DNA from: a virus
Taxonomy: Duplodnaviria > Heunggongvirae > Uroviricota > Caudoviricetes
Length of the DNA stretch: 7,586 nt
IMG/VR virus record: IMGVR_UViG_2778261594_000011
Span: 1-7,586 of that record
Reading direction: 5' to 3' (one strand)
The notes under the pieces are model-generated. The model was not told the DNA's origin. It saw nothing but the letters and a program-made list of their open reading frames with translations, and ran no database searches. Shown in pieces: positions 1 through 7,586 of the stretch (position 1 is its first letter; every line of letters begins with the position of its first letter). The position numbers and the translations under genes are program-made.

Positions 1-1158
1 ATGCCGAGAATAATCGAATTACGCCAGCAGAAAACCGCCATTAAAAATCAGATGCGCGACATGCTGGAGAACGCGGAAAAAGAAAACCGCAGCCTTAACG
101 ATGCTGAGGGCGCAAAATTTGACGAATTACGCGCTAAAGCTGAATCCCTCGATAAAGACATTTCCCGCCTTGAGGCCGTTGCAGACGAAGAGCGCAGCAA
201 GCCAGGTAAAAGCAGCCAGACCACTGACCCCGCCGAACTCCGCAACTACATTCTGACAGGTGAAACCCGCGCATTAAGTACAGGTGTCCCCGCTGATGGT
301 GGTTATACCGTTATCCCCGAACTGAACACCGAAATCATGCGAATGCTGGCGGACGAGTCCACGATGCGCCGCATCTGTACCGTGAAGAAAATCAGCAGCA
401 ACGAGTTTAAGCAGCTTGTTTCCGCTGGCGGTGCGACCGTTAACCACGGTGAAGAGGGTAAGGCACGCGAACAGACCAGCACCCCGCAGATTAACGAGGT
501 GAGCATCAAGCTGTATCCGGTATACGCCTATCCGCGCACCACACAGGAGATCGTTGATTTTTCCGATGTGGACATCCTTTCATGGCTGACGGGTGAGATT
601 GGCGACACCTTCACGGAAACCGAAGAAAGCGATCTGGTTGTGGGCGATGGTGACAAAAAAGCAAAAGGCTTTTTATCCGTACCCCGTGCAGAGAAGAACG
701 ACAAAGAGCGTGATTTTGGTACGTTGCAGGTAATTAAACCTTCCGAATCTCTGGCATGGACATCTGCGGACCCGCTGATCGACCTGAAATTTGCATTACG
801 TAAAAAATACCGCAAAAACGCGGTATGGGTGGTTAACTCCACGACGGCGGCAAAACTCCAGAAGGTGAAGAACGCGAACGGCGATTACATCTGGCGCGAC
901 CGTTTACAGGCGGGTGATCCTGATACGTTGCTGGGGCTTCCGGTGGAATATCTGGAATTTATGCCGGATAACGTTATCGCCCTGGGTGACTTCAAACGCG
1001 GTTATTACATCGTTGATCATGAAACGGGCGTGCGCACCAGACCGGACAACCTGACAGAGCCGGGCTTTATCAAAATTTTCACGCAGAAATATTTAGGCGG
1101 TGGCGTGGTGGATTCGAACGCGATCAAGATTCTGGAACTGCCGCAGGACGACGATTAA
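1..1158 (+). CDS. Major capsid protein, HK97 fold, with N-terminal coiled-coil delta (scaffold-like) domain
   Basis: 385-aa ORF. The N-terminal ~70 aa are charged and coiled-coil-like (ELRQQKTAIKNQMRDMLENAEKENRSLNDAEGAKFDELRAKAESLDKDISRLEA), typical of the HK97 gp5 delta domain; the rest has the HK97-family MCP pattern. A protease gene follows immediately. The ATG is at window position 1, so the true start and RBS cannot be checked. A strong terminator hairpin follows the stop. Confidence 0.85.
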   Translation: MPRIIELRQQKTAIKNQMRDMLENAEKENRSLNDAEGAKFDELRAKAESLDKDISRLEAVADEERSKPGKSSQTTDPAELRNYILTGETRALSTGVPADGGYTVIPELNTEIMRMLADESTMRRICTVKKISSNEFKQLVSAGGATVNHGEEGKAREQTSTPQINEVSIKLYPVYAYPRTTQEIVDFSDVDILSWLTGEIGDTFTETEESDLVVGDGDKKAKGFLSVPRAEKNDKERDFGTLQVIKPSESLAWTSADPLIDLKFALRKKYRKNAVWVVNSTTAAKLQKVKNANGDYIWRDRLQAGDPDTLLGLPVEYLEFMPDNVIALGDFKRGYYIVDHETGVRTRPDNLTEPGFIKIFTQKYLGGGVVDSNAIKILELPQDDD

Positions 1159-1164
1159 CAGCAC

Positions 1165-1197
1165 ACCGAAGGGGCTAAAAAGCCCCTTCTCTGTTTT
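1165..1197 (+). terminator. Rho-independent terminator-like hairpin after the capsid gene
   Basis: Stem GAAGGGGCT (1168-1176), loop AAAA, stem AGCCCCTTC (1181-1189), then the U-rich tract TCTGTTTT (1190-1197). It sits 7 nt after the capsid stop and before the protease RBS, so it is probably a partial terminator or attenuator. Confidence 0.6.
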
Positions 1198-1212
1198 ACA
1201 GGTGAAAAAATT

Positions 1213-1770
1213 ATGATGAGTATGGAAATCCGGTCATCGGAAATCACCACCAGCGGCAGCAACACGCTTACGGGCTACGTTGTTCGCTGGGATAACCTTT
1301 CAGAACTGTTATGGGGCGAATTTTACGAAAAATTCCAGCGAGGGGCGTTTACTGAATGGCTTGCGGCGGGTAATGACGTTCGCGGCCTGTATGAGCATGA
1401 CCACAGCATGTTACTGGGGCGTACCCGTTCCGGTACGCTGAAACTTGAGGAGGACGAAACAGGGTTACGCTTTGAACTGACCCCACCGGATACCAGCACA
1501 GGGCGGGATGTTATCGAACTGGTTAAACGTGGTGACATCTCGGGCATGAGTTTTGGCTTTCGTTCCCGTAAGGATGTATGGGATACAACAGTCGATCCAT
1601 GTGTGCGTACTGTACTGATAGCGGAACTGTACGAAATTACCGTCACATCCGTACCGGCTTACCCTGATTCCGGCGTGGAGCTGGCCCGACGTTCCCTGTA
1701 TGAACAGCACCCTGAAAAAATGCCTCGTGCGGATAATCGCCGCTGGTGGGCGGATTTAGCGGGGGTGTGA
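1213..1770 (+). CDS. Prohead maturation protease, HK97 family (peptidase S78)
   Basis: 185-aa ORF with the His motif LYEHDH and the Ser motif DISGMSFGF at the spacing expected for HK97 gp4-type proteases. RBS AGGTGA lies ~8 nt upstream. Three in-frame ATGs (1213, 1216, 1222) leave the exact start ambiguous. Confidence 0.85.
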   Translation: MMSMEIRSSEITTSGSNTLTGYVVRWDNLSELLWGEFYEKFQRGAFTEWLAAGNDVRGLYEHDHSMLLGRTRSGTLKLEEDETGLRFELTPPDTSTGRDVIELVKRGDISGMSFGFRSRKDVWDTTVDPCVRTVLIAELYEITVTSVPAYPDSGVELARRSLYEQHPEKMPRADNRRWWADLAGV

Positions 1771-1771
1771 T

Positions 1772-2983
1772 ATGTGGCCTTTCAGAAGAAAAAAAGAGCA
1801 TCGCAGCATAACGCTTGATGAATTTATGGCGCTGGCTGGCACGTCGAATACGGGGGCGGGTGAGTACGTATCATCGGGGACAGCAGAATCACTACCCGCC
1901 GTCATGAACGCCGTCGCGGTCATTTCTGAGGCGGTGGCTACTATGCCCTGTTACCTGTACCTGGTACGCAATGAGAAGGGGAAGGAGGCGCGGGAGTGGC
2001 TTGATTCTCATCCGGTCGATCACATTCTCAACGAGCGCCCGAACGCATGGCAGACCCCCTACCAGTTTAAGCGAATGATGATCCGCCACTGCCTGTTAAA
2101 CGGTAATGCTTATGCGGTGATTCAGTGGGGGCGTGATGGTTTTCCGGTGGCGCTGCATCCCTACCCGCCGCAGTCGGTGAACGTGGAGCAGACAGGGGAA
2201 CACAACTGGCGTTACTGCATCACTGACGCCTACACCGGAAACACCCGCAACTATCTCCCGTGGGAGGTTCTCCACCTTCGTTACTCCACGGATGACGGCT
2301 TTATGGGGCGCTCACCTGTAACCATCTGCCGCGAATCGCTGGGGCTTGGGCTGGCCCAACAACGCCACGGCGCGAGCGTGATGCGTGATGGCATGATGGC
2401 GGCAGGGGTTATCACGTCAGGCGAATGGCTGGACGGCGTGAAGGGCAAACAGGCATTAGCCGCACTGGAACGCTACAAAGGGGCCAGAAACGCCGGAAAA
2501 ACGCCCATTCTTGAAGGGGGTATGAGCTATCAGCAACTGGGCATGAGTAATCAGGATGCTGAATGGCTGGCCTCCCGTCGCTTCACCATTGAAGACATCG
2601 CCCGAATGTTCAACGTCTCGCCGATTTTTTTGCAGGAATACAGCAACAGCACCTACAGCAATTTCAGCGAGGCAAGCCGCGCATTTCTCACCATGACGAT
2701 GCGCCCGTGGCTGGCCAACTTTGAGCAGCAGATAAAAAACGCCTTACTGGTGGCCTCCCCTGTACCTGGTATCCGGTATCAGGTGGAGTTTGACAGCGCG
2801 GACCTGTTACGGGCCACACCTGGCGAACGCTTTGCCACCTATGAGCGCGGCATTAAATCCGGCGTTATGTGCCCGAACGAAGCCCGTGAACGTGAAGGAT
2901 TATCCCCGCGTGATGGTGGTGATGAGTTTAGCCAGGCCTGGAAACAGGAGGTCAAAATCAGCGAGGGAGACAAGCCGCAATGA
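1772..2983 (+). CDS. Portal protein, HK97 family
   Basis: 403-aa ORF with typical HK97-type portal sequence character (e.g. FTIEDIARMFNVSPIFL, acidic C-terminus). The start is 1 nt after the protease stop (GTGTGAtATG). Confidence 0.88.
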   Translation: MWPFRRKKEHRSITLDEFMALAGTSNTGAGEYVSSGTAESLPAVMNAVAVISEAVATMPCYLYLVRNEKGKEAREWLDSHPVDHILNERPNAWQTPYQFKRMMIRHCLLNGNAYAVIQWGRDGFPVALHPYPPQSVNVEQTGEHNWRYCITDAYTGNTRNYLPWEVLHLRYSTDDGFMGRSPVTICRESLGLGLAQQRHGASVMRDGMMAAGVITSGEWLDGVKGKQALAALERYKGARNAGKTPILEGGMSYQQLGMSNQDAEWLASRRFTIEDIARMFNVSPIFLQEYSNSTYSNFSEASRAFLTMTMRPWLANFEQQIKNALLVASPVPGIRYQVEFDSADLLRATPGERFATYERGIKSGVMCPNEAREREGLSPRDGGDEFSQAWKQEVKISEGDKPQ

Positions 2984-3318
2984 ATATAGGGCGACTTCGT
3001 GACAGGGTGACGGTTCAGACCCTGAAACAGTCCAGAGCCGTGACGGGGGAAATACTCCAGACGTGGGAGGACGGCCCCACACTCTGGGCGAGCGTGAACA
3101 TGGTGAGCAGCAAGGAGGCCATTTCATCGGGTGCAGAGCTGGCAATTGGTACCGTAAGGATCTGGATACGCTACCGGAAGGATATCAACGCCAGCAGCCG
3201 GATAAAGGTCAATACGGGGGCGATGGCGGGGCGCGTGCTGAATATCATCGGGCAGCCGCTGCCGGATGCAGCCATGACACGCCTTGAAATTCTTTGCCGT
3301 GAGGGCGCAGAAAAATGA
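2980..3318 (+). CDS. Head closure / head-tail joining protein (SPP1 gp16 / Phage_H_T_join-like)
   Basis: 112-aa ORF with the characteristic pattern RLRDRVTVQ ... W ... VNMVSSKEA ... VRIWIRYRKDI ... RI ... GR ... LEILCRE. The start overlaps the portal stop (ATGA). Confidence 0.75.
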   Translation: MNIGRLRDRVTVQTLKQSRAVTGEILQTWEDGPTLWASVNMVSSKEAISSGAELAIGTVRIWIRYRKDINASSRIKVNTGAMAGRVLNIIGQPLPDAAMTRLEILCREGAEK

Positions 3319-3608
3319 CAGAACTTATCACCCTGGAAGAAGTGAAACTCCATTGCCGCATCGATGGCGACGAGGAAGACCAGCTAATCAGCGGATACAT
3401 TGCCGCATCGCTTGAGGCGTGTCAGATACACATAGGCAGGCGCTTTGATGACGGGCTGGAGTTCACGCCAGCCATAAAGATTGGCTGCATGATGTTTATT
3501 GCTCACCTGTACGAGAATCGCCAGCTGGTCGCGGATAACACCAGAACACGCGTACCCCTGACGATAGGCGCACTCTGGACGGCTTACCGTGATGTGGGGG
3601 TGTACTGA
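3315..3608 (+). CDS. gp6-like head-tail connector protein
   Basis: 97-aa ORF with the N-terminal pattern LITLEEVKLHCRIDGDEEDQLISGYIAASLEACQ..GRRF typical of HK97 gp6-like connectors. ATGA overlap with the upstream gene. Confidence 0.75.
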   Translation: MTELITLEEVKLHCRIDGDEEDQLISGYIAASLEACQIHIGRRFDDGLEFTPAIKIGCMMFIAHLYENRQLVADNTRTRVPLTIGALWTAYRDVGVY

Positions 3609-4048
3609 TGCCGTGGCAACCGTTAAGGCGATGTACCGAACCAGGCTGCAACAGGCGCGTGAAGTCCGGCAAGTGTGAAGAGCACAGACGCAGCGCACGC
3701 CAGCAGCAGGACAGCCGGAGAGGCAGCAGCAGGGATCGAGGGTATACCAGGCAGTGGGAGAAATACCGCGCCATGTACCTTAATAAAAACCCGTTATGCG
3801 TGCGATGCCTTGAGAAGGGAATATATACGCCCGCCGTGGTGGTGGATCACATTATCCCCATCGATGGCGGTAATGATGTTCTGTTCTGGCCTGAATGGAA
3901 TCATCAGCCATTGTGTCAGGCGTGTCATAACCAGAAAACGAAATGGCTTGATCCGGCCACAAAAAACAAGCGTGCCGCTGGCGGATTCCGTGAGGAGGAA
4001 GAACGGGCAGCCAACCGCAATAACTGGATGTATGACGCTGATGAATGA
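3608..4048 (+). CDS. HNH endonuclease (terminase-associated, cos-packaging type)
   Basis: 146-aa ORF with a Cys-rich N-terminus (CTEPGCNRRVKSGKCEEH) and an HNH core (DHIIPIDGGNDV ... NHQPLCQACHNQKT). TGATG overlap with the upstream gene. It sits directly upstream of the terminase genes, as in HNH-dependent cos phages. Confidence 0.85.
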   Translation: MPWQPLRRCTEPGCNRRVKSGKCEEHRRSARQQQDSRRGSSRDRGYTRQWEKYRAMYLNKNPLCVRCLEKGIYTPAVVVDHIIPIDGGNDVLFWPEWNHQPLCQACHNQKTKWLDPATKNKRAAGGFREEEERAANRNNWMYDADE

Positions 4049-4214
4049 GCGGGAACAAAACCGTCTTATCCGTGGACTTATAAGGCAGCGTGACGCATGG
4101 AAGACACAGGAAACAGGGCATAAAAGCACAAAGGAAGCGCGAACAGGGCGCACCACAGCAACGCGATTAACTGACCGTGACCGCGAGGTGATGGAATGTT
4201 TCCGCAATCGCTGA

Positions 4215-4290
4215 TGATGCTGCCGGACGGGTGGGGGGGAGTTTTCAGGACAAACCCGCCCCCGTCCAGAACCGACCGCCTCCTCAAATT
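4215..4290. other. Candidate cos / terminase recognition region (GC-rich inverted repeat followed by an AT-rich tract)
   Basis: Inverted repeat GGACGGG (4226-4232) / CCCGTCC (4261-4267) flanking a G7 run and a C-rich run, followed by AT-rich sequence up to the terS start. It lies in the 289-bp HNH-terS intergenic gap, the position of cos in HK97-like genomes. Positional inference only. Confidence 0.25.
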
Positions 4291-4337
4291 TTTATGCACG
4301 GGAATTTTTTGAAAAATAATCTGGCGAAAAAATAAGC

Positions 4338-4694
4338 ATGGCAAGACCACCGAAAGCCCCCGCCTACCTGGATGATATCGCCGTGAAGCAGTGGCGGGAA
4401 AAATCGCGGCAGCTTGCGGAACGGGGAGACCTGACCCCCGCCGACTGGAGCAATCTGGAACTGTATTGTGTCAACTACTCCATTTACCGGAAAGCCGTTG
4501 CAGACCTTGCGGCGCGCGGGTTCAGCATTGTTAACAGTCAGGGCGGCGAGAGCAGAAACCCCGCATTAAGCGCAAAATCCGACGCTGAAAGAGTGATGAT
4601 AAAAATGGCCTCCTTGCTCGGTTTTGACCCGATAAGCCGCCGTAAAAATCCACCGGAAACAGAAGAAGAGGACGAGCTTGACCGCCTGGAATAA
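4338..4694 (+). CDS. terS: Terminase small subunit, P27 family
   Basis: 118-aa ORF with sequence character typical of P27-family TerS (KQWREKSRQLAERGDLTPADWSNLELYCVNYSIYRKA; acidic C-terminal tail EEEDELDRLE). It sits immediately upstream of, and overlaps, the large terminase gene. Confidence 0.8.
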   Translation: MARPPKAPAYLDDIAVKQWREKSRQLAERGDLTPADWSNLELYCVNYSIYRKAVADLAARGFSIVNSQGGESRNPALSAKSDAERVMIKMASLLGFDPISRRKNPPETEEEDELDRLE

Positions 4695-6339
4695 GTACGC
4701 AGAAGACGTAAAAACGGGCAAAATTCCGGCCTGTAAACGGCTGAAACAGGCCGTTAAACGGTACTTTTCGGACCTTGAAAGCCCCCTTTACACGTTCGAT
4801 CGTGAGGTTGTGGAGCGGTTTATTGCCTTTTCCAGGGTGTGCCCGCACGTAAAAGGGCCGATGCGTGGCAGACCCATTGAGCTGGAGCCGTGGCAGCAGT
4901 TCGCCTTTGCGTGCATCCTCGGCTTTAAGGTTAAGGCCACCGGACGGCGCAAATACACGAGCGCCTTTATCGAAGTGCCGCGCAAAAATGCGAAATCCAC
5001 GACCGCCGCGATTCTGGCTAACTGGTTTCTGATTATGGAGAACGGGCAGCAGGATATTTACACCGCAGCGGTGAGCCGTGACCAGGCGCGGATCGTTTTT
5101 GATGATGCGCGTCAGATGTGCCTTTTATCCCGACCGTTACGCAGGCGGGTGAATATTCAGGCCCACAAGGTGATGCACCCGAAAAGCAACAGCCTGTTAA
5201 AGCCGCTGGCAGCAAAAGCGGCAACCATCGAGGGAACAAACCCCAGCCTTTCCATCGTGGACGAATACCACCTACACCCCGATAACGGCGTTTATTCCGC
5301 GCTTGAGCTGGGGATGGGCGCACGTCCCGAAGGGCTGTTATTTGCCATTACCACATCGGGCAGTAACGTCGTTTCAACCTGTAAACAGCACTATGATTAT
5401 TGCTGCCAGATCCTGGACGGCGAAGAGGTCAACGATTCAATTTTTGTGCTGATTTACGAGCTGGACGACGAAAACGAGGTTGATGATCCGGCGATGTGGA
5501 TAAAGGCTAACCCTAACATCGATGTTTCCGTGGATCGTGAAAAACTGGCCTCAACCATCCAGAAAGCGCGGGGTATTCCGTCGCAATGGGTGGAGATGAT
5601 GACAAAGCGATTTAATATCTGGTGCCAGGGGGCTACCCCGTGGATGGGTAACGGCGCATGGGCTGAGTGTGCCGGAACGTTCACGGAGGAAGATTTACAC
5701 GGGCAGGAGTGTTACGCGGGGCTGGACTTATCATCAACCAGCGATATTTCCAGCGTGTGCTATGCCTTTCCGGTCGGTAAAAATATCATGCTGGTTTCCC
5801 GTCATTATCTGCCGGAGTTCCAGCTACAGAACCCCGCCAATAAAAACCGCGCTGTCTATCGCCAGTGGGCTAAAGCGGGCTGGATACGCACAACGCCAGG
5901 TGACTGCATTGATTACGACCGGATCAGAGATGACATCATGCAGGATGCGGAGAAATTTAATATCAGGCTGGTGGGCTTTGATACGTGGAACGCCACGCAT
6001 CTCAGGACGCAATTACAGGGGGCTGGTTTTGAGGTGGAGCCGTTCCCGCAAACCTACCTCAGATTCAGTCCGGCGGCGAAATCGTTCGAAGTTTTTGTTA
6101 ACCGCAGGGTGATTGTGCATCGTGGCGATCCGGTGTTGTCCTGGTCGATGAGTAACGTCGTGATGCAGAGTGACGCGAACGCCAATATCAAGCCGAACAA
6201 GAAAAAATCACCGAACAAGATAGACCCGAGCGTAGCGGCGCTGATGGCGTTTGGTACATTCCAGGCAGAGCATGAGGATTTTGCTTTTGATATAAGCGAC
6301 AGCCACCGCCAGAAACTGGAAGAATTTAGCGGGGTGTAA
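4678..6339 (+). CDS. terL: Terminase large subunit (ATPase + nuclease), Terminase_1 / HK97 gp2-like
   Basis: 553-aa ORF. Walker A-like IEVPRKNAKSTTAA and Walker B-like LSIVDEYH in the N-terminal ATPase domain, with an acidic-residue-rich C-terminal nuclease region. The ORF as drawn starts at a TTG (4678-4680), 17 nt inside the terS 3' end; the first in-frame ATG is ~61 codons downstream, after the conserved N-terminal W..Y..DV..GKI..C motif, so the non-ATG start is plausible but unproven. Confidence 0.88.
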   Translation: MTAWNKYAEDVKTGKIPACKRLKQAVKRYFSDLESPLYTFDREVVERFIAFSRVCPHVKGPMRGRPIELEPWQQFAFACILGFKVKATGRRKYTSAFIEVPRKNAKSTTAAILANWFLIMENGQQDIYTAAVSRDQARIVFDDARQMCLLSRPLRRRVNIQAHKVMHPKSNSLLKPLAAKAATIEGTNPSLSIVDEYHLHPDNGVYSALELGMGARPEGLLFAITTSGSNVVSTCKQHYDYCCQILDGEEVNDSIFVLIYELDDENEVDDPAMWIKANPNIDVSVDREKLASTIQKARGIPSQWVEMMTKRFNIWCQGATPWMGNGAWAECAGTFTEEDLHGQECYAGLDLSSTSDISSVCYAFPVGKNIMLVSRHYLPEFQLQNPANKNRAVYRQWAKAGWIRTTPGDCIDYDRIRDDIMQDAEKFNIRLVGFDTWNATHLRTQLQGAGFEVEPFPQTYLRFSPAAKSFEVFVNRRVIVHRGDPVLSWSMSNVVMQSDANANIKPNKKKSPNKIDPSVAALMAFGTFQAEHEDFAFDISDSHRQKLEEFSGV

Positions 6340-6352
6340 TGAGGTCAGCAGC

Positions 6353-6634
6353 ATGACAGAAGCCGAAATACTGCGATTAATCCGCCGCGTCTCTGGAATC
6401 AGCCAGCAGGCTGACGAACAGACCACGCAGCCGGACAGCGTGACAGCCGAAAATTATGCGCGTGTTGTTGCTGAGGTGATGCGCCGTGATGGTATCCAGC
6501 TTAATGATGCGGATATGCGCGACATACGGATCCGCGTTCTGGAAATGCTGGCCTACAATCGCCGCGTTGAACTGTATCGGGAGAAGGAGAAAATCACGTA
6601 TCACTGGAAGAAGCCGGAGCGGTTACGGCGGTAA
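6353..6634 (+). CDS. Hypothetical small protein (93 aa), last gene of the packaging operon
   Basis: ATG with a GAGGT RBS ~8 nt upstream, 13 nt after the terL stop. The protein is charged and Arg-rich with no motif I recognise. Coding status rests on ORF length, the RBS and operon context only. Confidence 0.5.
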   Translation: MTEAEILRLIRRVSGISQQADEQTTQPDSVTAENYARVVAEVMRRDGIQLNDADMRDIRIRVLEMLAYNRRVELYREKEKITYHWKKPERLRR

Positions 6635-6678
6635 CTTGTTGATTAAAAGGCGGCTCAATTCTGAGCTGGGTAGCTGAC

Positions 6679-6719
6679 GGCGGTAACTGTTTGATATTCC
6701 CGATAACGCAAAATTGCGC
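6679..6719. repeat. ~41-bp direct repeat, copy 1 (GGCGGTAACTGTTTGATATTCCCGATAACGCAAAATTGCGC)
   Basis: Direct sequence comparison with copy 2 at 6861-6904, which differs at a few positions. It contains the 17-bp motif gGTAACTnnTTGATATT and a short terminal palindrome (CGCAA-AA-TTGCG). Confidence 0.8.
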
Positions 6720-6774
6720 TGGCTACATCCCTCACATCTGAGGACTGTTAACCAGCAGGCCGGAATATATTCAC

Positions 6775-6797
6775 AAACTACGAAATTTTCGTAGTTT
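6775..6797. repeat. 23-bp near-perfect palindrome AAACTACGAAA-t-TTTCGTAGTTT (operator-like)
   Basis: 11-bp arms that are exact reverse complements around a single central base; located between the two ~41-bp direct repeats. Confidence 0.85.
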
Positions 6798-6860
6798 AAT
6801 TACTCGCCAGTTTATCGTTAACTAGTTGATATTTTCGGAAACCTCAATTTGAGGAAGTCG

Positions 6861-6904
6861 GCGCGGTAACTGTTTTATATTCCCGATAGCGCAAAAATGC
6901 GCGG
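6861..6904. repeat. ~41-bp direct repeat, copy 2 (GCGCGGTAACTGTTTTATATTCCCGATAGCGCAAAAATGCGCGG)
   Basis: Imperfect direct copy of 6679-6719. It is preceded by the palindrome CCTCAA-t-TTGAGG (6842-6854), which mirrors GCTCA-attc-TGAGC (6650-6663) ahead of copy 1. Related partial motifs occur at 6629-6645 (GGTAACTTGTTGATTAA) and 6820-6836 (GTTAACTAGTTGATATT). Confidence 0.8.
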
Positions 6905-6930
6905 TCGGGCAGAATGAGCACCACCTCAAT

Positions 6931-6966
6931 CGTGACGGAGAGTGACAACCAGTGACACACCGTGAC
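6931..6966. repeat. Four (C/A)GTGAC motifs at exact 10-bp spacing (helically phased iteron-like array)
   Basis: GTGAC at 6932, 6942, 6952 and 6962, followed by the palindrome ACGGTT-t-AACCGT (6973-6985). The reverse-complement motif GTCACT recurs at 7064-7069 and 7361-7366. Confidence 0.8.
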
Positions 6967-7019
6967 AAAAAGACGGTTTAACCGTTCATTAAAAATCGAC
7001 GTGATTTTGTGCTTTCCGG

Positions 7020-7038
7020 ATGACGTGGCCAACGTCAT
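7020..7038. repeat. Palindrome ATGACGT-ggcca-ACGTCAT
   Basis: 7-bp perfect inverted arms with a 5-bp spacer, followed by a T6 run; a related GACGTGAT lies at 7001-7010. Confidence 0.75.
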
Positions 7039-7354
7039 TTTTTAGCGAAAAATTCTGATTAAGGTCACTGGCTGAATGGTCATAATTACCACGCAGACCA
7101 TCGAGGCAACCATAGCGATCATCGTTACGGTTGGAGCTTTTCCGCCATTGGTGGAAAAGGTGCACATCTGGATCATCATTACGGTGATCAAGGGTATGTA
7201 AAACCCACCTGGCTGATTAAAGGTTAACCGGAAAAAAAATCCGGTAGCCCCGTTATGGGGATCCCCATATCGACAGCAACGCCTCCTTAAAATTACCCGC
7301 CTTTATATTTCTTGTGCCTATTTGTTCCACGTTGTTTCATACAGTGCACCGAAC

Positions 7355-7378
7355 GGTGTAGTCACTGGTGTAGTCATT
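7355..7378. repeat. Tandem 12-bp direct repeat GGTGTAGTCACT / GGTGTAGTCATT
   Basis: Two adjacent 12-mers differing at one base, ~75 bp from the putative element/host junction. Confidence 0.8.
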
Positions 7379-7421
7379 TTGCGAATTTTGGCACTTTCTC
7401 AGTGAAAATTGCTTAATTAAA

Positions 7422-7586
7422 TCAATGCACTATGCGGGATAAGTTATATATAACAGCAATAAATAATGCGAGAATAAACGGCACGATGATCTCGGCGGCA
7501 AAACGGATACCGCAGAGAATAATGACCAGCATTCCCAACATAATGACGATTTTTAGGCCATTGAGCGTGATGATCGGCTTTGCCAT
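7422..7586 (-). pseudogene. tqsA: 5' fragment of a tqsA (ydgG)-like AI-2 exporter gene, truncated after ~45 native codons
   Basis: The minus-strand ATG at 7584-7586 opens an ORF translating [45 protein letters not shown], which matches the TqsA N-terminus as I recall it, then continues IYNLSRIVH and stops at 7422-7424 (54 codons against ~344 aa for intact TqsA). The gene start is at the window edge, so the promoter and upstream region are not visible. Confidence 0.55.

Follow-up and report, generated by a model that had tools for sequence, protein, structure and literature searches.

A tqsA-integrated Escherichia coli element very probably carrying the capsid and packaging arm of a capsid-forming PICI of the EcCIEDL933 lineage

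The DNA analyzed here, a stretch of 7,586 nt referred to below as the window, is very probably (about 94% in our estimate) the capsid and packaging half, or right arm, of a capsid-forming PICI (cf-PICI) of the EcCIEDL933 lineage integrated in tqsA of E. coli. The whole window matched a segment of the E. coli contig ABUDUE010000005.1 at 100% identity (locus L007, positions 10001-17586), and the full element was read from this locus. The original prediction had proposed the right arm of such a satellite, which is backed by the gene content of the element in L007 and by the 88-100% identity of the proteins to those of EcCIEDL933; no counter-evidence was met in the window sequence. Judged by its sequence, the element represents a closely related allele of EcCIEDL933, the published and experimentally characterized prototype cf-PICI from E. 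coli O157:H7 EDL933 (Alqurainy et al., 10.1101/2022.09.08.507074; Cell Host Microbe 2023). This makes the cf-PICI call correct, but it also means that the element is already known, since the family was described in 2022/2023 and a structural study appeared in 2025.

In L007, the element measures 15,234 bp from one copy of ATAACAGCA to the other, and in NZ_CP146507 it measures 15,601 bp. Both lengths lie within the range of cf-PICIs (about 10-18 kb). To the left of the window, L007 encoded PerC, SSB, an AAA_25 RepA-like replicase, DUF4222, small ORFs, AlpA and a tyrosine integrase. The terminal integrase (L007 2400-3629, PF13356 + PF00589) and the AlpA regulator (L007 4004-4192, PF05930 Phage_AlpA) form the integration and regulation module, while the replication module consists of SSB and the 469-aa AAA_25 protein, which is labelled ‘helicase RepA family protein’ in NZ_CP146507 (L001). 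The gene tables of L007 and NZ_CP146507, covering the element and its flanks, contained no tail or lysis gene. An integrase, an AlpA-like regulator and a replicase without any tail gene were what the prediction had anticipated on leftward extension. The packaging genes were also present, in the order published for proteobacterial cf-PICIs (capsid-protease-portal-connectors, then hnh-terS-terL), and the element as a whole falls under the operational cf-PICI definition of He et al. (10.1101/2025.02.11.637232). The same architecture was found in NZ_CP146507 and in Shigella, Citrobacter, Erwinia, Gilliamella, and Klebsiella loci, and the module is carried by about 7% of complete E. coli genomes. 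A megablast search of the phage collection returned no phage with the module, the best matches reaching 26-27% coverage at 77-79% identity. One of these matches is itself most likely a cf-PICI record.

Within the window, nine genes had been listed on the + strand, namely capsid, protease, portal, head closure, gp6-like connector, HNH, TerS, TerL, and a 93-aa ORF. All nine and their order were confirmed, while a conserved 60-aa ORF between HNH and TerS had been left out. Strong Pfam matches were obtained for eight of the nine, the exception being the 93-aa ORF. The genes are tightly coupled as described, with overlaps of 4 nt between portal and closure, 4 nt between closure and connector, 1 nt between connector and HNH, and 17 nt between terS and terL. 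The major capsid protein (1..1158, +; Pfam Phage_capsid, 1.6e-61) has an HK97 fold with an N-terminal delta domain and a maturation motif SxGxxAD at S93-D99, and it falls in NCBIfam major_cap_HK97 (TIGR01554, 4e-88). It was identical at 382 of 385 residues to PDB 9GYI, a T=4 capsid structure identified by its depositors as that of EcCIEDL933. The S78 prohead serine protease of the HK97 family (1213..1770, +; Pfam Peptidase_S78, 2.7e-47) and the portal protein (1772..2983, +; Pfam Phage_portal, 2e-90) were each 98% identical to their EcCIEDL933 counterparts.

The portal gene is followed by those for the head closure protein Hc1 (2980..3318, +; Pfam Phage_HCP, 3.3e-20; phrog_25) and the gp6-like head-tail adaptor Ad1 (3315..3608, +; Pfam Phage_connect_1, 3.2e-11; phrog_40), which correspond, respectively, to the ‘head-tail adaptor’ and the ‘head-tail connector’ of He et al. 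and together set tail compatibility (10.1101/2025.02.11.637232). Ad1 was 96% identical to its EcCIEDL933 counterpart. Hc1 shared 88% identity with that of EcCIEDL933 and 37% with that of the Klebsiella element, the latter in agreement with the 35% reported for the adaptors (10.1101/2025.02.11.637232).

The HNH endonuclease (3608..4048, +; Pfam HNH, 1.6e-8; phrog_144, 3.4e-43) is an accessory to cos cleavage by TerS and TerL. The basic 60-aa ORF lies behind it (4032..4214, +; phrog_3173, 2e-29). Searches of Pfam and NCBIfam gave no family for this ORF, but it is annotated in RefSeq relatives, its frame is preserved through a divergent stretch, and it was found in Shigella relatives and weakly in those from Erwinia. 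The gap between hnh and terS contains two conserved non-coding blocks, GGGTGGGGGGGAGTTTTCAGGAC and GAACCGACCGCCTCCTCAAATTTTTATGCACGGGAATTTTTTG, which were kept in E. coli, Citrobacter, Erwinia, and Gilliamella elements. By comparison with HK97-type systems, the cos site may be placed in this gap (4225..4330, no strand assigned). The linear record LR881103.1 was assembled from DNA of a lysate, and its ends lie on either side of a stretch of about 70 nt of the same gap. Then follow the P27-family small terminase TerS (4338..4694, +; Pfam Terminase_4, 1.3e-23; sm_term_P27, TIGR01558) and the large terminase TerL (4678..6339, +; Pfam TerL_ATPase, 2.4e-25, and TerL_nuclease, 1.6e-50), which was 98% identical to its EcCIEDL933 counterpart. 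HNH, TerS, cos and the 93-aa ORF had been regarded as the parts most likely to be new. This did not hold, as TerS was identical to that of EcCIEDL933 at 118 of 118 residues, and HNH and the 93-aa ORF were 90 and 94% identical.

The window was then set against the EcCIEDL933 island, located at 1.680-1.696 Mb of EDL933 with its module proteins at L004 38124-44760. The DNA identity was 94.5% over positions 1-6643, and the module order was the same, with a capsid 99% identical and the other eight proteins 88-100% identical, so that the protein comparison with a known cf-PICI came out as proposed. The 60-aa ORF and the conserved gap between hnh and terS are present in EcCIEDL933 too, and toward its right end it carries arm-type repeats and a repeat array of the same kind. 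The two elements are alike in size (15.2 kb for the element of the window and 15.4-15.5 kb for EcCIEDL933) and share a backbone of AlpA, DUF4222, SSB, and PerC. They differ in the insertion site, which is tqsA here and the interval between roxA and phoQ for EcCIEDL933, and in the replicase, which is an AAA_25 RepA-like helicase here and a DUF927 protein in EcCIEDL933.

The other known systems share fewer features with the element. The cf-PICIs KpCIDSM30104 and EcCIGN02175 (He et al. 2025) belong to the same family and have the same module order, with identities to the window of 83% for TerS, 81% for TerL, 81% for the portal, 66% for the capsid and only 37% for the adaptor; they lack the 93-aa ORF and carry a 765-aa gene after terL instead. 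The GenBank record LR881103.1, ‘phage vB_KppS-Ant’, is most likely KpCIDSM30104, so that what a publication presented as a filamentous phage is in all likelihood a cf-PICI. Phages of the HK97/HK106 type share the HK97-fold capsid with delta domain, the S78 protease, the HK97-family portal, the gp6/gp7-type connectors, and cos packaging by a P27-type TerS, TerL, and a gp74-like HNH. Compared with HK97, however, the element has no tail, lysis, or lysogeny-switch modules, and its head genes are reversed (capsid-protease-portal) and apart from terS-terL. The EcCIEDL933 capsid is T=4, with no covalent cross-link detected, whereas that of HK97 is T=7. The identity of cf-PICI proteins to their phage homologues is low, below 40% (10.1101/2022.09.08.507074). 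Classical Gram-negative PICIs of the EcCICFT073 type and P4-like satellites share the integrase, the AlpA-type activator, the replication module, PerC, a size of about 10-15 kb, and helper-dependent spread. But these use the capsid and terminase of the helper (through Rpp, or Sid/Psu redirection), and P4 uses the helper’s cos site, while the element encodes its own HK97-type capsid and terminase, which sets it apart from P4-like satellites.

Small elements of this kind can also be read as decayed, immobile prophage remnants (‘cryptic prophages’) that retain a head and packaging module. Decay does occur: a copy in Shigella flexneri no longer has cos block 2, and its terS is missing the 5′ end. 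In the window, however, none of the ten ORFs is truncated, each having the length seen in the functional prototype, and the element has sharp boundaries with a 9-bp repeat. Its size and content are constant across many genomes and genera, and the near-identical EcCIEDL933 was mobile in experiments. We therefore regard a remnant as improbable. A rearranged complete HK97-like prophage, with tail and lysis genes just outside the window, could be entertained from the window alone, which begins exactly at the start codon of the capsid gene and leaves the upstream region invisible. But L007 contained no tail, tape-measure, or lysis genes within 10 kb on either side, and neither did NZ_CP146507 within 18 kb on each side. 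The examined region thus holds a 15.2-kb element with 10-18 kb of flank and not a prophage of about 40 kb, and this reading is already refuted for the sequenced contexts. A domesticated module resembling a gene transfer agent and packaging random host DNA is equally implausible, because although RcGTA capsids were the second-best solved-structure matches of the capsid (E about 8e-47), the element carries an integrase, att sites, and a replication module of its own, has no tail genes, and encodes a sequence-specific P27 TerS and an HNH typical of cos packaging, and the small capsids of the prototype contain island DNA as detected with an island-specific probe.

For the cf-PICI, a mode of action can be proposed from the published work on EcCIEDL933, in which all packaging-module genes were mutated and the mutants lost transfer, except that of gene 1792, for which transfer was only reduced (10.1101/2022.09.08.507074). 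In the same study, helper capsid mutants had no effect on transfer while helper tail mutants abolished it, and small capsids with island DNA inside were observed by EM and with the island-specific probe; EcCIEDL933 thus builds its own small capsids and borrows only the tails of the helper phage (10.1101/2022.09.08.507074). The cryo-EM structure of the T=4 capsid and ‘tail piracy’ were reported by He et al. (10.1101/2025.02.11.637232; PDB 9GYI). If the present element follows this prototype, to which it is about 95% identical, a helper phage would trigger alpA, and the island would excise and replicate. The capsid protein, protease, and portal would assemble T=4 HK97-fold procapsids (about 47 nm) from island proteins only, and the TerS, TerL, and HNH of the island would cut and package its DNA. 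The head-closure and gp6-like proteins would then complete the portal vertex and dock borrowed non-contractile siphovirus tails. We infer that the present element likewise makes its own small capsids filled with island DNA only and needs nothing but tails from the helper. Unit-length island DNA may be packaged from concatemers, the cos site may lie within the conserved hnh-terS gap, Int may recombine at the 9-bp core ATAACAGCA, and the 88%-identical adaptor may still take HK106-type tails. Since identity to the prototype is only 88-90% for the adaptor and HNH, the helper or tail range could differ.

The 93-aa ORF (6353..6634, +; phrog_1561, 1.5e-55) had no family in Pfam or NCBIfam. Its homologues comprised 965 clusters, every one named ‘hypothetical’, with just 37 representatives at 50% identity. 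It is restricted to the E. coli/Shigella lineage and was missing from the Klebsiella, Citrobacter, Erwinia, and Gilliamella elements. The AF2 model showed three helices at low confidence (pLDDT 68), and Foldseek against PDB gave no match below E=0.9. This ORF is a lineage-restricted accessory gene and not a core capsid gene. The ‘hypothetical gene 1792’ of EcCIEDL933, whose mutation merely reduced transfer, may correspond to the 60-aa ORF or to the 93-aa ORF.

Behind terL the window contains, in order, the 93-aa ORF, about 815 bp without a credible gene, the att core, and tqsA, with no tail, lysis, or tape-measure gene. In an array of four direct repeat units (6626..6912, +), each unit places the box CGGTAACTnnTTGATATTyyCG ahead of a short hairpin with a stem that varies from unit to unit. 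At this position EcCIEDL933 has five such units, and the units were absent from the rest of the element. Compared with EcCIEDL933, the window carries an extra insertion of about 150 bp with GTGAC x4, a cluster near the right end phased at 10 bp. A link of this cluster to the replicase type was considered, since it is absent from EcCIEDL933 (DUF927), but is not supported, because it is also missing from two AAA_25-type elements (L008 and L010). The right end further includes a conserved stretch in which signals resembling terminators and promoters occur along with short hydrophobic ORFs; two candidates for such ORFs near 7074-7200 gave no Pfam or NCBIfam family. An Rfam scan of the entire window (E<=1) matched nothing. 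That positions 6635-7449 (about 0.8 kb) hold a functional cis-acting or regulatory system peculiar to this lineage of cf-PICIs is a tentative idea that we consider unlikely; packaging or replication enhancement, a small RNA, or a toxin module would be possible roles.

The right boundary of the element is the attR copy of the 9-bp att core ATAACAGCA (7450..7458, no strand assigned), and the second copy lies at the int-side junction (L007 2216; L001 9853). The homology to EcCIEDL933, which uses another att site, ends at 7427. The 23-mer CGGTGTAGTCACTGGTGTAGTCA (7354..7376, +), with tandem GGTGTAGTCA, is directly repeated beside the int end, with identical copies at L007 2352 and 17354 and also in NZ_CP146507. 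It was rejected as the att core because, at either end, it sits some 75-135 bp within the element. The 9-bp ATAACAGCA at the tqsA break is the true core, and CGGTGTAGTCACTGGTGTAGTCA is probably an arm-type integrase site. The remainder of the window (7459..7586, −) is the chromosomal 5′ end of the AI-2 transporter gene tqsA, cut after codon 46 by the insertion, and is covered by a minus-strand ORF at 7422-7586. In L007, pntB and the 3′ part of tqsA lie upstream of the element, and the att core, the 5′ part of tqsA, and mdtJI lie downstream. Relatives annotate the tqsA fragment as a partial pheromone autoinducer 2 transporter. The geneless stretch followed by the att core and tqsA shows that the element was correctly predicted to end about 1.1 kb after terL.

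The discovery value of the element is small, as it differs little from the prototype of a family already described. As a check of method, a cf-PICI was recognized from raw sequence alone, and the checks that were run came out as predicted. In practical terms, the analysis yields the exact boundaries and the att core of the tqsA-integrated variant, together with a mappable candidate cos region conserved across genera. The same tqsA junction was found in 246 of 5426 complete E. coli genomes, so that the insertion would inactivate this AI-2 exporter gene in roughly 4.5% of the E. coli genomes sequenced, with possible effects on the handling of quorum signals.

The element represented by the window is of a kind already known, a capsid-forming phage-inducible chromosomal island (cf-PICI) close to the prototype EcCIEDL933 of Escherichia coli EDL933. 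Nine long + strand ORFs were found in the six-frame ORF list, in the places and order given by the original prediction from the sequence alone, and eight of them showed strong Pfam matches over their full length. These were Phage_capsid (1-1158), Peptidase_S78 (1213-1770), Phage_portal (1772-2983), Phage_HCP for head closure (2980-3318), the gp6-like Phage_connect_1 (3315-3608), HNH (3608-4048), Terminase_4 for TerS (4338-4694), and TerL_ATPase plus TerL_nuclease for TerL (4678-6339). The ninth, a 93-aa ORF (6353-6634), matched phrog_1561 over its full length. In NCBIfam, the capsid protein belonged to the HK97 major-capsid equivalog and TerS to the P27 family. Adjoining genes overlapped by 1-17 nt, so that "tightly coupled" was an accurate description. 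A conserved 60-aa ORF at 4032-4214 (+ strand; phrog_3173), annotated by RefSeq in relatives, was absent from the earlier gene list. No credible gene was listed 3' of the 93-aa ORF in the rest of the window, and the final 165 nt encode the N-terminus of TqsA on the minus strand. The gene order that had been noticed as permuted is the published order of proteobacterial cf-PICIs, in which capsid, protease, portal and head connectors are followed by hnh-terS-terL (Alqurainy et al., bioRxiv 10.1101/2022.09.08.507074).

The capsid protein was identical at 382 of 385 residues to PDB 9GYI, in which the EcCIEDL933 capsid is modelled from cryo-EM data (He et al., bioRxiv 10.1101/2025.02.11.637232). This capsid has T=4 symmetry and is 47.5 nm across, a covalent cross-link was not detected, and its maturation involves cleavage at an SxGxxAD motif (He et al.), which corresponds to S93-D99 in the window protein. 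EcCIEDL933 itself was found between roxA and phoQ in the EDL933 chromosome (locus L004, int at 30329 and packaging module at 38124-44760). Its DNA was 94.5% identical to window positions 1-6643, and the module showed ordinary mosaic variation over its length. The protein identities were 98% for the protease, 98% for the portal, 88% for head closure, 96% for the gp6-like connector, 90% for HNH, 100% for TerS, 98% for TerL and 94% for the 93-aa ORF.

At least 80% of the window was present by megablast in 385 of 5,426 complete E. coli genomes, which places the module in about 7% of them. The best match (NZ_CP146507, 96.7%) has tqsA interrupted by a 15.6-kb insertion, of which the module forms the right half and which also encodes an integrase, an HTH regulator, an Icd-like protein, a RepA-family helicase, SSB and PerC. 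A search for exact matches to the capsid protein led to contigs of draft E. coli assemblies, one of which (ABUDUE010000005.1 in GCA_041351855.1, hereafter L007) holds the entire window at 100% identity. The element in L007 measures 15,234 bp, from ATAACAGCA at 2216 to the next ATAACAGCA at 17450. Its genes are int (2400-3629), AlpA (4004-4192, PF05930), small ORFs, DUF4222, an AAA_25 RepA-like protein, SSB and PerC, and then come the window genes. The int, AlpA, RepA-like replicase and PerC genes to the left of the module support the predicted cf-PICI. Tail or lysis genes nearby, or an element well over 20 kb, would have refuted the satellite reading, and neither was seen: the 15.6-kb insertion contained no tail or lysis genes and was flanked on both sides by ordinary chromosomal genes.

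The 9-bp ATAACAGCA (window 7450-7458) corresponds to tqsA codons 44-46, and we infer that it is the att core. Homology of the window to elements at other att sites ends at 7427. The AI-2 transporter gene tqsA is split after codon 46, with eight foreign codons and a stop appended (7422-7586, minus strand). On the int side of the L007 element, an in-frame stop codon lies immediately upstream of the residual tqsA sequence, and the insertion therefore probably inactivates tqsA. The tqsA junction was present in 246 of the 5,426 genomes. An identical 23-mer, CGGTGTAGTCACTGGTGTAGTCA (a tandem GGTGTAGTCA), is found close to each end of the element in direct orientation (window 7354-7376 and L007 2352-2374), embedded in a longer similar stretch. 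These copies are probably arm-type integrase binding sites. A near-identical copy is also present at the right end of EcCIEDL933, despite the different att site of that island.

Further non-coding features lie between the module and the junction. Four direct repeat units lie at 6626-6912, all on the + strand and at no other place in the element, compared with five in EcCIEDL933 (L004 44752-45182). Each consists of a conserved box, CGGTAACTnnTTGATATTyyCG, and a short hairpin with a unit-specific stem (GCTC/GAGC, GCGC/GCGC, CCTC/GAGG or TTCGCC/GGCGAA); two units abut with a 48-nt period, and none had an Rfam match. GTGAC is repeated four times at 6932-6966 with exact 10-nt spacing, which would place all copies on one helix face. 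EcCIEDL933 lacks the segment of about 150 bp that contains this array. The array occurs in L007, NZ_CP146507 and three related loci (L006, L009 and L011); that it simply tracks replicase type was rejected, since it is absent from L008 and L010. The stretch at about 7074-7165 is conserved with EcCIEDL933 and lies, on the minus strand, between a promoter-like site (7202-7175) and a hairpin resembling a terminator (6985-6973). Short hydrophobic ORFs occur on both strands of 6973-7202 (e.g., MMIQMCTFSTNGGKAPTVTMIAMVASMVCVVIMTIQPVTLIRIFR, minus strand). At 7020-7043, inspection by eye picked out a + strand hairpin, ATGACGT-GGCCA-ACGTCAT with a T run behind it, that the scan had not flagged. The features of 6973-7202 had no Pfam, NCBIfam or Rfam match; they could represent a small protein or an sRNA, or have no function.

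The 93-aa ORF had been expected to be new, which its EcCIEDL933 counterpart contradicts. It had no Pfam or NCBIfam family match, and its 965 homologue clusters, all unnamed, form a narrow family (37 representatives at 50% identity). A three-helix structure was predicted with low confidence, and a fold search with this model gave no meaningful match. Since the ORF was not found in the elements of Klebsiella, Citrobacter, Erwinia and Gilliamella, it belongs to the accessory genes of the E. coli/Shigella lineage, outside the core capsid machinery. It may be the published "hypothetical gene 1792", whose mutation severely reduced EcCIEDL933 transfer, whereas mutation of any other packaging-module gene abolished it (Alqurainy et al.). 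In the elements between yejM and narP (L008, L009 and L010; 16633-20216), 3.5 kb past the 93-aa ORF contained no called gene; immune systems are expected in this variable accessory slot (He et al.).

The same gene order was found in relatives from Shigella flexneri, Citrobacter amalonaticus, Erwinia psidii, Gilliamella and Klebsiella. The phage collection held no record with the module except one, itself most likely a cf-PICI. This record (LR881103.1, "Escherichia phage vB_KppS-Ant", 16,548 bp) has all the genes of a cf-PICI, in the cf-PICI order. PMC8006926 describes it as a filamentous ssDNA prophage that matches a section of the genome of K. pneumoniae DSM 30104 at more than 99% identity; it most likely corresponds to KpCIDSM30104 (He et al., 2025). 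The 765-aa gene behind its terL carries a tape-measure annotation and is probably a misannotated accessory gene.

We suggest that cos would lie in the hnh-terS gap, where two non-coding blocks are conserved among elements from E. coli, Citrobacter, Erwinia and Gilliamella. The linear record LR881103.1, an assembly of DNA from a lysate, begins 22 nt ahead of terS, ends 37 nt past the small ORF behind hnh, and lacks about 70 nt of the gap relative to the other elements. Physical ends inside these 70 nt, under-covered in sequencing, would fit this pattern, which is suggestive but not proof. In the copy of Shigella flexneri SFBU1023 (CP182556.1, 99% capsid identity), a deletion at about 14214-14264 of the locus (L012) removed the second conserved block and the first ~16% of terS, and this copy is probably packaging-defective and immobilised.

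EcCIEDL933 is an island of 15.4 kb that carries int, alpA and rep; helpers HK106 and HK446 induce it in an alpA-dependent manner, and it builds its own small capsids. Its transfer was unaffected by helper capsid and terminase mutants and abolished by helper tail mutants (Alqurainy et al.). A cf-PICI is defined as an island of 10-18 kb with int, regulation and replication modules and eight packaging genes, without a lysis or tail module (He et al.). The element agreed with this definition on every point testable in sequence, and the published cf-PICI life cycle is therefore the best explanation of the window. By analogy with the prototype, in which these steps were shown, a helper would trigger alpA expression, and the island would excise and replicate. 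Its proteins would assemble T=4 HK97-fold procapsids, into which TerS, TerL and HNH would specifically package island DNA, in our proposal as unit lengths. Tail-less cf-PICI capsids are released and then dock to tails of different phages, the accepted tails being set by the "adaptor" and "connector" genes (He et al.), and the particles of this island would likewise be completed with borrowed siphovirus tails.
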